NCBI GenBank assembly: GCA_963699545.1
Contig: CAVOUE010000012.1
Coordinates: forward strand, 97,140-161,139
DNA length: 64,000 nucleotides
DNA from: Nitrospirota bacterium
GTDB lineage: Bacteria > Nitrospirota > Thermodesulfovibrionia > Thermodesulfovibrionales > UBA9159
Reading direction: 5' to 3'
Positions 26,027 through 33,097 of this stretch are shown in pieces. Below the pieces are notes generated by a model. It saw only the letters and a list, made by a program, of their open reading frames with translations. It was not told where the DNA came from and ran no database searches. Within the stretch, counting starts at the first letter, position 1; the number at the start of each line of letters is the position of its first letter. The position numbers and the translations under genes are program-made.

Positions 26027-28150
26027 ATGAGCTTCTGGAGCGCGATACAGAGAGATTATAAGGCCGTTTTCAGGAACGACCCTGCGGCGCGGAACGGAGT
26101 GGAGGTGGTCCTTGCCTATCCGGGCTTCCATGCCATCTTCCTCCACAGGATCAACCATGTCCTCTGGAACCTCGGGATACCGTTCGTCCCCCGGCTTTTC
26201 TCCCATATCGCGCGGTTCCTTACGGGTATCGAAATCCATCCTGCAGCGAAGATCGCGCCCGGTTTTTTCATTGACCACGGCATGGGTGTCGTGATAGGAG
26301 AAACCTCAGAGATCGGAGAGGACTGCCTCCTGTATCAGGGGGTTACCCTTGGAGGAACAGGGAAGGAAAAAGGGAAGCGTCACCCCACCCTCGGCAAGAA
26401 CGTCGTGGTCGGTACCGGCGCCAAGATCCTGGGCGCGATCACCATCGGGAACTCTGCCAAGATAGGGGCTAACGCCGTTGTTCTTGATTCCGTGCCCGAC
26501 TACGCCATTGTGGTGGGTGTTCCGGGAAAGGTCATCAAGAAGAAGGTTCTCCGGATGATGGACGAAGGTGCGGTCGAAAGCCTTTCCCGCGTGCACCTTC
26601 CGGACCCTGTGGAAGAAAAGTTCAGGGAAATGGAAAAATATATCGCCGGACTCGAAAAGAGGATGGAGACACTGGAAGGAAAGGGAGGGAGGATGCGAGT
26701 CTACAACACCCTGAAAGGGAACAAGGAAGAACTGATTCCCCTCAGTACGGGCAGGATCGGGATGTATGCCTGCGGGGTCACGGTGTATGATCTCTGCCAC
26801 ATCGGTCATGCCCGCAGCGCCATCGTCTTCGACGTGATGCGGAGATACCTTGCTTTCAAAGGCTTTGAGGTCAAGTATATAAGGAATTTCACCGACATTG
26901 ACGACAAGATTATCAACAGGGCCAAACAGGAAGGTATTTCCTGGGATGAGGTTGCGAGGAAATACACGGCGGAATATTACCTGGATATGGACCGGCTCGG
27001 CGTGGGAAGAGCGGATATGGAGCCAAAGGCCACGGAGCATATACCGGAGATTATAAACATCGTCAAAGGTCTTGTGGAGAAGGGATATGCGTATGCCGTC
27101 GATGGCGATGTCTACTTCGAGGTCAGGAAATTCTCAGATTACGGAAAGCTCTCGAAGAGGGATATAGAGGATATGCTGGCCGGTGCCCGGGTGGAAGTTG
27201 ATGAGAGGAAACAGAATCCCATGGACTTTGCCCTCTGGAAGGCATCAAAAGAAGGGGAGCCGTCGTGGAACAGCCCGTGGGGTCCGGGAAGGCCGGGATG
27301 GCATATCGAATGCACTGCCATGTCCATAAAGCATCTCGGTGAAAGCTTCGATATTCACGGAGGAGGGGCGGATCTGATCTTCCCTCACCATGAGAACGAG
27401 CTGGCCCAATCCGAAGCGTATACCGGTAAGCCATTTGTGAGATACTGGATTCACAATGGCTTCATCACCATCGATAAAGAGAAGATGTCAAAGTCCCTCG
27501 GGAATTTCTTTACCATCCGGGAGATCCTGGACACGTTCGACCCCGAAGTGGTGAGGTTCTTTCTCCTCTCGACACATTACCGGAGCCCTATCGAATTTTC
27601 GGACGAGTCCCTGAGGGAGGCGGAACTGTCCATCGACCGGTATTATTCCACGGTGGTGAGGATGGAAGATTTCCTGAAAGAAGCGCAGAACAGGGAGAAA
27701 CAGACCGGGGAAGAACGATCACTGGAGGAGACCCTTGGCGCGTTCATGAACAGATTTCAGGAAGCGATGGATGACGATTTCAATACCGCCCTTGCCCTTG
27801 GTCACCTCTTTGAGCTGATCCGGGAGGTGAACAGGTATCTGGATTCCAAACCTTCAGGCCAGAATGCGAAGGAGTTCATAGCAAAAGCAAAAGACCTGCT
27901 GCGGAAGGCAGGGGGCATTCTCAATATCTTCAACAAGCTGCCCGAAGAATGGAACGACGCCCTGATGCAGACCAAGAAGATCCCCTACACGAAGCCCGAG
28001 ATCCTTGACAAGATCAGACAGAGGCAGGAAGCAAGGCAGAAAAAGGACTGGTCAGCTGCGGATGCCGTAAGAAAAGAACTGGAGGCACAGGGGGTAATCC
28101 TTGAAGACAAAAGGGACGGCACCTCCTGGAAGGTGAAAATCGGCAAGTAG
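26027..28150 (+). CDS. cysE-cysS: In-frame fusion of serine O-acetyltransferase and cysteine--tRNA ligase
   Basis: TGIEIHP, DHGMGVVIGET and KRHPT in the N-terminal part; CGVTVY, HIGH, GWHIEC and KMSKS in the C-terminal part. Confidence 0.92.
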   Translation: MSFWSAIQRDYKAVFRNDPAARNGVEVVLAYPGFHAIFLHRINHVLWNLGIPFVPRLFSHIARFLTGIEIHPAAKIAPGFFIDHGMGVVIGETSEIGEDCLLYQGVTLGGTGKEKGKRHPTLGKNVVVGTGAKILGAITIGNSAKIGANAVVLDSVPDYAIVVGVPGKVIKKKVLRMMDEGAVESLSRVHLPDPVEEKFREMEKYIAGLEKRMETLEGKGGRMRVYNTLKGNKEELIPLSTGRIGMYACGVTVYDLCHIGHARSAIVFDVMRRYLAFKGFEVKYIRNFTDIDDKIINRAKQEGISWDEVARKYTAEYYLDMDRLGVGRADMEPKATEHIPEIINIVKGLVEKGYAYAVDGDVYFEVRKFSDYGKLSKRDIEDMLAGARVEVDERKQNPMDFALWKASKEGEPSWNSPWGPGRPGWHIECTAMSIKHLGESFDIHGGGADLIFPHHENELAQSEAYTGKPFVRYWIHNGFITIDKEKMSKSLGNFFTIREILDTFDPEVVRFFLLSTHYRSPIEFSDESLREAELSIDRYYSTVVRMEDFLKEAQNREKQTGEERSLEETLGAFMNRFQEAMDDDFNTALALGHLFELIREVNRYLDSKPSGQNAKEFIAKAKDLLRKAGGILNIFNKLPEEWNDALMQTKKIPYTKPEILDKIRQRQEARQKKDWSAADAVRKELEAQGVILEDKRDGTSWKVKIGK

Positions 28151-28224: not shown

Positions 28225-28431
28225 TCAAAATACCGTCGAAACAAACTGGTCCATCCTCGTCGCCGAACCCGTTCGTATCGACTTCCCCACTTCAACTGCC
28301 ATTATAATTTCCTGCTCATCAATCCCATTTTCGCGGGCCCTGCCCACGTGGTGTTCCACTCACCCCTGACAGTTTGAAGCAACAGATGCTCCGACAGCGA
28401 TCAATGACTTGATTTTTTCATCAAGACCCAT
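28225..28431 (-). CDS. AhpD/carboxymuconolactone decarboxylase-family selenoprotein (CxxU), 68 aa
   Basis: GGAGG SD; MGLDEKIKSLIAVGASVASNCQG-UGA(28360-62)-VEHHVGRARENGIDEQEI; SECIS-like hairpin 28332-28348. Confidence 0.88.
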
Positions 28432-28500: not shown

Positions 28501-28719
28501 TTACAGTGTTCATGAACCTCCGTATCCAATTGTCACCTTGTCTCCTTCCACGATGACCGGAACCCTTGCAGCGCCTTTCGTGTATTCAAGCATCTCCTTC
28601 AGTTTTGCCCTGTCCGACAAGACCTCGATATAGACTGCGGTATCGCCAAAGGCCGACCTGGCCGCTTGACTGAAGGGTCATCCCTTCTTGCCAAAGATTT
28701 TTATCACTGTTTCCGTCAT
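28501..28719 (-). CDS. UXX-star-type glutaredoxin-like selenoprotein with two Sec, 72 aa
   Basis: FGKKG-UGA(28678-80)-PFS...RVPVIVEGDKVTIGYGGS-UGA(28510-12)-TL-TAA; hairpins 28651-28663 and 28478-28500. Confidence 0.88.
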
Positions 28720-28770: not shown

Positions 28771-29307
28771 TTACTCTATAAGGAGAAGTGCGAAGTAGTT
28801 CCATTTGCCGTATGTCTCTTTTTTCGTGTCGACCTCAAAGCCGTTGGCCCGCGCTGTTTTGAAGACATCTATGCCGCAGGCTTCCATAAGGGGCCTGATC
28901 CTGAGTTTTTTCTGGTCACCAGTCTGAGACTCACCCTGAGTCTCCGCCTCACCAGAGGGTCACGTTGCCCCTTCGGGCCCTGAAGAGAGAGCAGTCATCG
29001 CGAATGCCTTGTAAAAGCCCATCTGGTATGCCTCGCCTTCAAGCCTCACGGCGGTCTCGGTGAGGGTCTTCCCCTTGGAGCCGTTCATGAGGATCGCTTT
29101 GCTGTATTCCTTCATCATCTTTTTTGTGCTGTCCGCATCGGGAGCACAGGGGGGATGATAGGCGTCCTTACCATGGAATGCACAGCCGTAAACGCACTTC
29201 CACCTCACCCACTCCTCTACGACAACAGCACTGGTATTTATGACCCTGGCTTTCTCGGCCCCAAGCTCAAGGGACCTTTTTAAGAGCTGGTCTGTTTTAT
29301 CTTCCAT
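28771..29307 (-). CDS. DUF2284-like metal-binding selenoprotein, 178 aa
   Basis: WVRWKCVYGC...PPCAP...GPEGAT-UGA(28960-62)...RPLMEACGIDVFKTARANG; the family motif lies after the UGA; hairpin 28926-28944. Confidence 0.85.
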
Positions 29308-29335
29308 TCCATCACCTCCTTCACGTGTGGTGGCT

Positions 29336-30271
29336 TCATTTATGTTTAAGCGTATACTCTCTGCCGTCCCGGTTACGACCTCGGCAGGATGTCCGTCCTC
29401 CTGAAAAATACGGACACCGTTCTTCCCTGCACCCGTGGGGATGCTTGACGCCATGATTGCAAATTATTGATTGGCTTAGGGGCAGCACGAGTCCGAGGCT
29501 TTCCCCAAGGTAATTCACCGCCGCATCAAGGGATGTCCTGACATACGCCTTACAGCAGCTCGGGCCTGTGAGATCGGTTATCGCCCTCGCAACCCTTGTC
29601 ACCGCCTCCATGGTGATCCTCTGCTCCTCATCTTTACCGCATTTCGAACCCGTGAGGACTGCAAAACAGGCCCCCATGGCCGGGGCGATGCCGCAGACGC
29701 CGCTCAGGCCGCAATAGCCGCCGTGGGCCTGCTTCCTTGTGCGTTTAAAGACCTCCTTGATCTCTTCATCCGTCATGCCCTTCACGCCTTCGTTCTTTAT
29801 CGCGGCCATAAGTGCCCCGCCGGCAATGTACGCATGCTGGCAGCCGAGCATCGGAAGTCCCGGGAAACTCATGGCAATTTCGGCTATCTCGAAGGGATTG
29901 CTTGATGACGTCGAAAATATAGTATCTTCTATGATCCTCATCGAATCCCTGTTGTGACAGAGGTCGCAGATATAGTGGCCGCTTAGGCAACTTATATGGC
30001 CGTGCTCAAGCTTGCCACAGTATATGCACTTCAGCTCCTCTGCCTTGTCGTGATACGTCAGGGGCGTGCCGCAGACCATACAGTGCTCGGTTGCTTTAGT
30101 CTGAACTTCTACGACAGGTTTATCCCCCTGGTTCCCGCTTTCGCAAAGCCCTTCTATGGTCCCGGTTAACGACTTTGAAGCGCTGTTTTGATGCCCACCA
30201 GCATCATCGCCCGGCTCTCAATCTCAGCTGCCATCTTCTCTCAATTCTTTCCTCTCTTTTTCCTCTGCCAT
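29336..30271 (-). CDS. DUF5714-like Cys-rich protein with an N-terminal UxU motif, 311 aa
   Basis: AAGGAGG SD; MAEEKERKELREDGS-UGA-D-UGA-EPG, in frame with CMVCG, CIYCG, GHYICDLCH, GGYCG and GPSCCK; hairpin 30189-30206. Confidence 0.82.
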
Positions 30272-30283
30272 TGTTTCCTCCTT

Positions 30284-30618: not shown

Positions 30619-31122
30619 TTATGTGCGCTTTCGGGTTTCTTTTCTCGGTCCCCACGCCTGCATCTTTATCTTTCCCTCCCGAGCGAGTTTGCCAAGGATA
30701 AAGAGGACGCTCTCACGATTCAGCTTAAAGTATGAAGCTACCTCGTCAGGGTCCACTTTTTCTCTGTCGGTGAGAAATACGACTATCTCATTCTCGATCT
30801 CTCTCATCCAGTCATTAAAGAGTCCCCGCAGCTCCGGGGTCGAGTACGTGGCCAGCTCATAGGAATGGCTCACCGCCGATATGACCTCCTTGCTCATCTC
30901 CACCGGATTCACCCCTGAATCCGAACACTCCTTAATTCATTCATCCACCAGCGACGCCAATTGTCGCCCCTTTTTCCTGCCGGCAGCCACGCTCCGGAGC
31001 ATTTCTTCCTTATCAGCTTCGTTCAGGTCCTTTAAGAGCGTTGTGACAAGGCTGCTCAGGACCTCTCTCTTTTCGGTGGAACTCATACCGGTCATGACCT
31101 TTTCGATCGTGCCCTTTTCCAA
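30619..31122 (-). CDS. Unknown selenoprotein (UxxxC) with a wHTH-like C-terminus, about 167 aa
   Basis: ORFs 30937..31131 and 30619..30912 are in frame, separated only by UGA 30937-39; strong hairpin 30903-30924; TTG start after GGAGG. Confidence 0.78.
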
Positions 31123-31127
31123 TGAAA

Positions 31128-31562
31128 TCACCTCCTCTTTTCAGCATTACGATGAATGTTGTCCTTCGGTTTCCTCATTATAGGAGTCCGTTTGATCTGC
31201 CTCTCCACTTTCCACATTTTTTTGACGACAGGTTCGGGCTTTCCGTTTTTATTCGGTTTTTTATCATTTAATTGAGAAAGATCAGCGAGAATGTCCAGAA
31301 GCGAAGGGTCAGACAGACTGTAATAGATAAAAGGACCCTTCCTTTCCGTCCGCACGATGTCGGCCTCGCGCATGATCCTCAGGTGAAAAGAGACCAGGGT
31401 TTGAGAGAGGCCGGTTGTCCTCACAAGCTCCGTTACCGACCGGGATTCCTTACCGACGGACATAACCATGTCCAAACGGTTCCTATCCCCAAGAGCCTTG
31501 ATGAAGCGGGCAAGTGTATCCATGTCGTTGATATTCCAGCCGTTTACCATATCAAAATCCAT
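31128..31562 (-). CDS. ArsR/SmtB-family regulator heading the selenoprotein operon
   Basis: KALGDRNRL, SQTLVSFHL and RKGPFIYYSL. Confidence 0.9.
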   Translation of the reverse strand: MDFDMVNGWNINDMDTLARFIKALGDRNRLDMVMSVGKESRSVTELVRTTGLSQTLVSFHLRIMREADIVRTERKGPFIYYSLSDPSLLDILADLSQLNDKKPNKNGKPEPVVKKMWKVERQIKRTPIMRKPKDNIHRNAEKRR

Positions 31563-31833: not shown

Positions 31834-33097
31834 TTAGAATTCATACCTCACTTGAAGATAAATATTGTCGTTCTTATCGAGCTGCCCGAACTGGCTCCCC
31901 TGGTTGCCGCCCCCGAAGATGTTTGCCCCAATGGCTGACCAGACGTGGTCTGAAAAGTTATATTTGATTTCAGGATTGAGCATATAGTCCCCAGCGGAAG
32001 GGCTGTAAAAAGCGAAGAAGGACAGCCTCAGTGTCTGATGCATCAGGAATTGAGTCAGTCGAACGGTGGTAAGTTGGTAAAGCTGGCTTTCCTGCGGAAA
32101 CCCTTGAGGAAGATTTTTTGTATAATTTGAATGGTTGTGCATGTACTCTCCGTAATATTGGACGCCTACAGTAAAATCTTCCCATATCTGCCTCTGGTAG
32201 CCGATGAGGAACCTTGTCTGGGAATTCGGGATCATGGGGTTTGTACCGCTTCTGTCTTCCCTTGAATCATAATATCCCGCTTCAAGACTCAGGACACCAT
32301 CCAGCGCTCGCCCCTGAAGGCTCGCGCCGTATTCCGACAGCGTCGGGATAAAAGAGTGTCAGTTTGGTCGGCATCGTTGCATTGTCGGGCATCATCGAAG
32401 GTTGCCTGAAGAATCCGCGATACGCATAGAACGATACGTCAAAGCCTGCTATGTCACGGTAGGCCCTGAGAGCAATCTCTGTATTTCCCAGGGTTACCGG
32501 CGGTTTCACCTTTTCTCTATCCGTGACACCTGGCATAGGGTCAAACATCCAGAACCTGTTCGGGGAAGGGAAAGTATTAGGTGTAAAAAAGGGGATTGCA
32601 ATCACCTCGAAAGACGCAAAGCCCGGATAAATACCAATCTTCGCTCCGTCTATTCCCTTCTTTAGATATTCCAGCGGCCTGCCTGAAAAGAAAGCTTCAT
32701 AGTCTTTTGGAAACACGTCGTTGATAAATATGAGGTCTCCCACGCCCCAGGTTATGACCTGTCTTCCGACCCGTCCGTCCCATTTCGAGGAAGTGAAATC
32801 AAGATATCCTTCCCTCAATTCAGATTTTGGTTTCTCATCGATGTGATCATAGAACCCGTCCGCCTTAATAAAAATACGGAAAGGGTCTTTGGATGCGTCA
32901 AGCTTTAGTTGAAGCCTTTCCTCCGCCAGTTTGAAATCTGCCCCGTCCGGATTGGAAGACGCCGCGTCCGCAGAATAGTTGCCCTGCAAAAAACCGTGCA
33001 GGGAAATATCCGATGCGGCAGCGTTCGATGAAGACAGTATGCAGGCGGCAAATAAAAAGAGTCCCGCCGGAAACGGGCTACATTTAAGATTGCGCAT
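31834..33097 (-). CDS. Outer-membrane beta-barrel protein (DUF1302-like), frameshift near 32335
   Basis: Signal peptide, LREGYLD, GRQVITWG, C-terminal YLQVRYEF. Confidence 0.75.

Follow-up and report, generated by a model that had tools for sequence, protein, structure and literature searches.

How does a bacterium read a gene in which two UGA codons, separated by a single sense codon, stand close to the start? This question is raised by a locus in a 64,000-nucleotide (nt) stretch of DNA from a Nitrospirota bacterium (GTDB lineage Bacteria; Nitrospirota; Thermodesulfovibrionia; Thermodesulfovibrionales; UBA9159), which covers positions 97,140 to 161,139 of contig CAVOUE010000012.1 (NCBI GenBank assembly GCA_963699545.1) and is referred to below as the window. 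On its minus strand, the frame of an open reading frame (ORF) called as a 247-amino acid (aa) protein starting at ATG 30079 extends upstream through two TGA codons to another ATG at 30271. By profile comparison, the gene is an MbdU gene (NCBIfam NF045648, “metal-binding double selenoprotein MbdU”, DUF5714 + DUF2284). We propose that it extends from 30271 to 28771 and includes three selenocysteine (Sec, U) codons, so that the called ORF would be a fragment of a selenoprotein of roughly 500 residues. As judged from comparison with relatives, both UGAs in the N-terminal arm (codons 16 and 18) almost certainly encode Sec.

Start, relatives and family of the gene

Read on the minus strand, an AAGGAGG sequence (30283–30277) is followed by a 5-nt spacer and by ATG 30271–30269. 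When TGA was read as U, the frame opened by this ATG gave 15 residues at codons 1–15 (MAEEKERKELREDGS), then U16 (TGA 30226–30224), D (GAT), U18 (TGA 30220–30218) and EPGDDAGGHQ, and ran without a stop through a further 40-residue linker into TEHC-MVCG and the DUF5714 domain. No ATG, GTG or TTG is present in frame between the second TGA and ATG 30079. The latter has no purine-rich site upstream and sits within C-M-V-C, the first Cys codon of which is 30082–30080. TEHCMVCG is kept in relatives whose called N-termini reach further upstream, indicating that the call at 30079 is truncated. An initial annotation, made from the sequence, had proposed the Shine-Dalgarno site and ATG at 30271 and the U-D-U motif at codons 16 and 18, and had remarked that the called start lacks such a site and splits a CxxC; our reading agreed with it on each of these points, and all coordinates held on the minus strand.

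The arm was then compared among relatives. Of 1580 candidates in a protein search, 692 proved to be relatives, and the 120 listed mostly covered 72–80% of the query, but not the arm. Relatives' DNA was taken from relative genomes (8 of 41 matched), the phylum (59 of 401), the order (37 of 317), genome contigs (10 loci) and metagenome contigs (16 loci); six loci at contig ends or with a broken frame were left out of the motif count. Reading TGA as U gave 46 distinct N-termini with an arm. Forty-two of them carried C-U and came from Nitrospirae metagenome-assembled genomes (MAGs), together with Syntrophales and Desulfobulbaceae MAGs. U-D-U was found in two, the window and locus L018 (= L026), C-D-U in one (L036, a contig 93% identical) and S-U in one (L038). 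The search for CxC or UxU homologues that the initial annotation had recommended thus returned, as the closest relative, a C-D-U form with Cys at the first TGA. An all-Cys (C-C) motif was seen in none of the 121 of 122 stored proteins with the zinc-ribbon motif, a result obtained without a dedicated arm-only search of protein collections. As side observations, L038:1164–1214 reads S-U-P, that is, Sec without a preceding Cys, and protein P0102 (277 aa) reads C-R-P, with Arg in place of Sec, possibly through CGA for TGA.

All forms with an arm share one plan: a start, 8–15 mostly K/E/N-rich residues, the Sec motif, four residues, an [DE]-A-G-G-H-Q-like stretch and a linker that is always open (17–51 codons). 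In another 16 loci (L062–L077), which belong to family f25 of the phylum search, the arm is absent and the protein begins only a few residues ahead of the CxxC. Since these homologues do without it, the Sec arm is an accessory module found in part of the DUF5714 family.

These comparisons also bear on whether the region upstream of 30079 is protein at all. It could instead encode a 15-residue leader peptide ending at the first TGA, with the DUF5714 protein starting at 30079 or at a non-canonical codon; gene callers start at MVCG in many relatives, and the sequence of the arm and linker is poorly conserved. However, the CxxC that a start at 30079 would cut is conserved, the frame is open across the TGA in all 46 distinct relatives, 22 of 47 distinct linkers contain no canonical start codon, and the arm shows a ratio of non-synonymous to synonymous substitution rates (dN/dS) of 0.2. 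Moreover, the NF045648 model includes the arm, the matches of relatives beginning at profile positions 3–8. We therefore regard a leader peptide as very improbable and ATG 30271 as supported by these comparisons as the real start.

The NF045648 profile has a curated cut-off of 600 bits. Intact relatives scored 751.6 (L036, C-D-U), 748.8 (L018, U-D-U), 773.2 (L027, C-U) and 776.9 bits (L037, C-U). The window gene scored 410.2 bits in its N-terminal half (profile 5–270) and 336.2 bits in its C-terminal half (275–468), each half alone being below 600. The N-terminal half matched PF18978 (DUF5714) over the whole profile (1–173 of 173) with 160 bits against a gathering score of 26.2 (residues 114–289), which bears out its earlier description as a DUF5714-like protein. 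The C-terminal match came from the frame of the ORF at 28960–29454 when this was read through TGA 28962–28960. At this TGA, the DUF2284 half carries the Sec motif …G-x-T-U-P-S-G-E…, which was present in 15 of 15 full-length relatives and is followed by about 60 conserved residues (62 in the window). A second hairpin after this codon has five consensus pairs in 16 sequences, with changes on both sides in only one pair, so that its covariation is weak. A review table (PMC13188914) lists MbdU with the motif CU and two Sec, crediting Haft & Tolstoy 2025, mSystems 10:e0141724. The arm of the window departs from this CU in that the Cys is replaced by Sec and is separated from U18 by Asp. Family membership, the third Sec, the splitting of the gene described below and the row of five selenoprotein genes had all been missed by the initial annotation.

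Searches beyond the family were less informative. The A2 profile, that of the intact U-D-U relative, gave no meaningful match among solved structures (best E = 0.026, ovotransferrin), and a literature search for DUF5714 found no paper. The ESM Atlas returned only DUF5714 clusters, some of which are auto-named “SAM-dependent methyltransferase”, a name that serves as a lead only.

Codon 16 and the integrity of the gene

At codons 16–18 the window reads TGA GAT TGA, the closest relative L036 reads TGT GAT TGA, and L018 reads TGA GAC TGA. Window and L036 thus differ by one base at codon 16, and the GAC of L018 is synonymous with GAT. L018 is 80% identical to the window, belongs to another genus of the same family and has an intact gene of 514 aa. 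U18 is predicted to be the canonical Sec of the family, because its spacing to the downstream hairpin is the same as in the family. U16 is most likely an extra Sec, standing where Cys is encoded in the closest relative.

Selection on the arm was estimated over codons 1–64. The dN/dS was 0.229 against L018 (synonymous divergence, dS, 0.617) and 0.536 against L036. For comparison, the core gave 0.122 (dS 0.783) and the C-terminal DUF2284 half 0.068, both against L018. The arm value against L018 and the frame that stays open in relatives place both TGAs inside a translated frame under selection, in accord with the earlier annotation of this frame. Because L018 carries TGA in an intact gene of another genus, and because the arm has a dS of 0.617 and a dN/dS of 0.229, the comparison indicates that U-D-U is not a fresh lesion.

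An explanation that has to be weighed here is that the gene is decaying or mis-assembled, its TGA at codon 16 having arisen by a nonsense mutation or a wrong base call, and that only C-D-U or C-U is functional. Apart from the TGT of L036, it is favoured by a private insertion of 1 nt in the same gene, where the window has GGAGGAC and relatives have GGAGAC. Past this insertion the frame of the N-terminal half continues to TGA 29338–29336, and DUF5714 and DUF2284 are not in one polypeptide as assembled. A single G is implied by protein P0003 (which reads CPYFSGDGHP) and by L036 and L018, in both of which the gene is intact. Public sequencing data were consulted as well; no RNA run was listed as containing the sequence, the best DNA run shares 0.39 of sampled words, and no single piece spans the whole stretch. 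Contigs from three runs of three studies covered the site, and one letter was missing at 29397 in all three. In the contig of run X5, the GAT-to-GAC change was present and no change at either TGA was among the differences listed, an observation that speaks weakly against an error at codon 16.

The machinery for Sec insertion adds to the same question. A tRNA-Sec (72.9 bits), selA (607.1 bits) and selB (302.1 bits) were detected in the same genome, whereas the best candidate for selD stayed below its cut-off (66.9 versus 125 bits) in this genome, which is 86.94% complete. The selB gene is read in two frames in the assembly, and this apparent frameshift, like the failure to find selD above its threshold, favours a decaying trait. 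At the selB locus (L001, contig C3:318143–319991), the switch of frame lies near C3:319110–319125, where a short run of T occurs; …DEPVVALSG is the end of one frame, and the other continues with PGDRFIVRRFSPV…. The split may reflect an error of 1 nt in the assembly or a selB gene that is indeed broken. On the other side, L018 has TGA at the same codon in a gene that scores 748.8 bits, the divergence of the two arms means that the TGA is not fresh in both, and the part past the frameshift is still under purifying selection against L018, with the dN/dS of 0.068 given above. We consider 1-nt indel errors in the assembly more likely than a strain losing the trait, and a lesion or base-call error at codon 16 is unlikely.

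A probable shared hairpin for two UGA codons

A single hairpin, TGATGCT-GGTG-GGCATCA, follows both UGAs, and the distance to the start of its loop is 18 nt from the second TGA and 24 nt from the first, as had been described before. It is conserved and resembles a selenocysteine insertion sequence (SECIS). The A-G-G-H-Q stretch of the protein coincides with the hairpin, and the combination of in-frame TGA and hairpin recurs in relatives. In an ungapped alignment of 34 sequences (A1), six named stem pairs were scored. Pairing was found in 87.9% of cells, with changes on both sides in six of six pairs; none of 500 shuffles reached the observed values, and a slid 3′ arm paired in at most 57.6%. 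The loop starts with GG in 31 of the 34 sequences and is GGUG in the window, and single-sequence folds contained at least four of the six named pairs in 23 of 34. The case for the hairpin element is one of conservation and covariation, and stability carries no weight in it.

The model for bacterial SECIS elements (bSECIS) given in the review cited above comprises an apical loop of 3–9 nt, an upper stem of 4–16 bp, G at the first two loop positions and a distance of 16–37 nt between UGA and loop (PMC13188914). The window hairpin has a stem of 7 bp and a loop of 4 nt that starts with GG, at 18 nt from U18 and 24 nt from U16. The conserved stem is separated from U16 by just 17 nt, which leaves this shared hairpin as the sole candidate SECIS for U16.

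Both UGAs could nevertheless be read by separate means, the first through a second, unrecognised element or by near-cognate (Trp/Cys) read-through, yielding W-D-U or C-D-U. Only U18 has the canonical spacing, with the loop 18 nt after the UGA, and folds of the U-D-U/C-D-U clade add a lower stem right after U18 (L018, −23.3 kcal/mol), which leaves U16 outside. Against this, the 17 nt between U16 and the stem offer no space for a second hairpin, 24 nt is within the bSECIS range, and close di-Sec motifs (UxxU, UxxxxU and UxU) are known in other bacterial families (PMC13188914, PMC1976440). Separate decoding of the first UGA is therefore improbable in our estimate.

From the frame and its conservation, the covariation, the Cys/Sec pair at codon 16, the family membership and the part of the Sec machinery that is present, we infer Sec insertion at both codons, one hairpin for both and the chemistry of the arm. 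The initial annotation had likewise suggested that one SECIS decodes both UGAs and that the tag either binds soft metals or makes translation depend on selenium supply; its interpretation is supported in part, these three proposals being plausible readings of the sequence. In the scheme that we think likely, translation would start at ATG 30271 and UGA18 would be recoded by SelB on the hairpin at 30206–30189, with the loop 18 nt downstream, while UGA16 would most likely be read as Sec through the same hairpin at 24 nt. In evolutionary terms, an Asp codon would have been inserted into the C-U pair of the family in this lineage, giving C-D-U, and the Cys codon would then have become a second UGA, giving Sec-Asp-Sec. 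Somewhat less firmly, we favour the general view that one coding-region SECIS supports two Sec insertions two codons apart, the extra Sec being born from a TGT-to-TGA change within reach of the SECIS.

The linker varies in length and shows little sequence conservation, and the arm is therefore taken as a flexible tether that leads to the zinc-ribbon-like CxxC. Its pair of selenol and thiol groups, a diselenol pair in the window, would most likely capture a soft metal or metalloid, or form an Se-S or Se-Se redox bond, and cargo or electrons would be passed to the Cys-rich core of DUF5714 and DUF2284, in which a further Sec is located. A protein with three Sec codons would require selenium for its synthesis. 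The soft-metal or redox role is suggested by the neighbouring ArsR and MerT-like genes, by family NF041536, in which DUF2284 is fused to an arsenite methyltransferase, and by analogy with the terminal arms of thioredoxin reductase (TrxR) and mercuric reductase (MerA).

Several observations count against this scheme. U-D-U occurs in two genomes only, and codon 16 encodes Cys in the closest relative, so that a recent change from TGT to TGA, through an error or a nonsense mutation, is conceivable if the window is considered by itself. Eleven of the 34 single-sequence folds lack the named hairpin. The 63-nt stretch of the window shows no excess of stability over shuffled sequences (z = 0.13), 108 of 200 of which folded equally well or better, and RNAalifold on A1 gave no consensus pairs, probably because shifted hairpins in a few rows (the L032 group, L033 and L035) spoil the ungapped alignment. 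In Escherichia coli fdhF, the distance between UGA and SECIS is reported to be tightly constrained, which would argue against efficient decoding 6 nt further off; a literature search for SECIS spacing experiments returned nothing relevant. The gene is split by the insertion and the locus could be decaying in this genome, where selB is in two frames and selD is missing above cut-off. Finally, metal binding is argued from names and neighbours only, and Sec at codons 16 and 18 is a prediction from the sequence.

If the scheme is true, the trio C-U, C-D-U and U-D-U would show the birth of Sec sites and would offer a test of the tolerance of SelB and SECIS to spacing outside E. coli. Near relatives share one SECIS and differ only in whether a single position upstream of it holds Cys or Sec, which amounts to a natural experiment. 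Variants of this gene would make it possible to ask at what distance from a bacterial SECIS a UGA is still recoded, and how the metal or redox chemistry of a diselenol arm (U-x-U) compares with that of selenol/thiol arms (C-x-U, C-U).

Gene row and comparison with known systems

The MbdU gene lies in a minus-strand row in which five genes encode selenoproteins and some 3.4 kb contain eight in-frame TGAs; its four selenoprotein neighbours also have in-frame TGA at known Sec positions (Table 1). Among 76 loci, TsoA-like genes were the most frequent neighbours (at least 28 loci), followed by ArsR (at least 18), MerT-like (at least 16), AhpD-like (at least 14), UXX-star (at least 6) and outer-membrane protein genes (at least 3); all of these counts are lower bounds because of duplicates and short flanks. 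The TsoA-like neighbour in the window carries VDE-U-IKEC and not the LULAxC motif named for TsoA, and the Sec of the MerT-like protein falls within the first transmembrane stretch. Upstream of the row, 31834–32235 (minus strand) encodes the C-terminal part of an outer-membrane-like protein (…NPEIKYNFSDH…VRYEF) with no NCBIfam match; such a protein is directly upstream of MbdU in L019 and L021. On the plus strand, 26027–28150 is a single 707-aa ORF with a serine acetyltransferase-like N-terminal half and a cysteinyl-tRNA synthetase-like C-terminal half.

Table 1. Coordinates of the MbdU gene elements and of the surrounding gene row in the window
Feature	Position	Strand	Details
ArsR-family regulator	31128..31562	-	Head of row; HTH_5 42.1 bits, cut-off 22; no Sec codons
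TsoA-like winged-helix selenoprotein	30619..31131	-	U65, TGA 30939-30937 (…VDE-U-IKEC…); NF045695 99.1 bits, cut-off 170, profile 1-144
MerT-like membrane protein, 97 residues	30284..30577	-	U21, TGA 30517-30515 (FFA-U-QLPLILASLGLG); NF033560 33.4 bits, cut-off 130, weak
Shine-Dalgarno-like AAGGAGG	30277..30283	-	Just past TGA stop 30286-30284 of the MerT-like gene
MbdU N-terminal arm, codons 1-64	30080..30271	-	K/E-rich start, U16-D-U18, DAGGHQ hairpin region, variable linker to first Cys of C-M-V-C
TGA codon 16, probable extra Sec of the variant	30224..30226	-	TGT (Cys) in L036, TGA in L018
TGA codon 18, predicted canonical Sec of the MbdU N-terminal motif	30218..30220	-	4 codons before the hairpin, as in 42 C-U relatives
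SECIS-like hairpin	30189..30206	-	7-bp stem TGATGCT (30206-30200) / GGCATCA (30195-30189), loop GGTG (30199-30196)
Cys-rich zinc-ribbon-like stretch (CxxC...CxxC...C...CxxCH) and DUF5714	29405..30082	-	Pfam residues 114-289 = 29932-29405
1-nt insertion	29397..29398	-	GG versus single G in relatives; splits DUF5714 and DUF2284 halves
DUF2284 half of MbdU, second frame	28771..29397	-	Putative Sec TGA 28962-28960 (…GAT-U-PSGE…), true stop 28773-28771
Second SECIS-like hairpin	28928..28942	-	GACTC/GAGTC core, loop AGGGT, after the DUF2284 Sec codon
Glutaredoxin-like UXX-star selenoprotein family 1	28501..28719	-	TGAs 28680-28678 (G-U-PFS) and 28512-28510 (S-U-TL-stop); NF041114 91.5 bits, cut-off 72
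Small AhpD-like protein	28225..28431	-	C-Q-G-U, TGA 28362-28360; TIGR00778 32.4 bits, cut-off 27.8

Compared with described MbdU proteins (NF045648), the window gene has the same DUF5714 and DUF2284 domains, the N-terminal Sec arm with its hairpin and the Sec within …G-x-T-U-P-S-G-E… of the DUF2284 half. It differs in that its arm reads U-D-U instead of C-U, that it has three Sec codons instead of two, and that the gene is split by the 1-nt insertion. The NF041536 selenoprotein (arsenite methyltransferase/DUF2284) shares the DUF2284 half, the Sec and the C-terminal 60 residues with the window gene (309.7 bits, profile 267–459), whereas the latter has no methyltransferase domain; its score, below the cut-off of 575, denotes a shared domain and not membership.

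Closely spaced Sec residues have been reported in other bacterial proteins. A UxU motif arose in a rhodanese-related sulfurtransferase by gain of a second Sec (Zhang & Gladyshev 2007, PMC1976440). There, as proposed for the window, the second Sec evolved beside an existing one, but the fold is unrelated and the motif belongs to an active-site loop rather than to an N-terminal arm. The review lists UxxU and UxxxxU selenoproteins, namely the NF041115 metal-binding protein, a Prx-like oxidoreductase, an FmdB-family protein and TsoB, together with CxU, and also gives CU motifs for HgcA and SaoB (PMC13188914). The UxxU and UxxxxU proteins resemble the window gene in having two Sec codons a few codons apart and a coding-region SECIS, and several are linked to metal handling; they belong to other families, and their Sec codons are spaced by 9–15 nt as against 6 nt in the window. 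No NF041115 member was found above cut-off in this genome.

A resemblance in possible working, rather than in descent, may be drawn with proteins that act through a terminal arm. Animal thioredoxin reductase ends in GCUG and mercuric reductase MerA in CC. In both, adjacent thiol or selenol groups on a flexible terminal arm transfer electrons or a soft metal to a centre buried in the protein. The arm of the window differs in being N-terminal and in belonging to an unrelated fold, and its Asp spacer alters the ring size of an Se-Se or Se-metal-Se link. Taken together, the profile comparisons place the gene in a known family, of which it is a rare variant; it represents neither a novel type of protein nor a new class. 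The MbdU family, close di-Sec motifs and a UxU motif are already in print; what appears to be new here is a U-D-U MbdU with three putative Sec, its C-D-U sister and the implied use of a single SECIS for two UGAs 6 nt apart.

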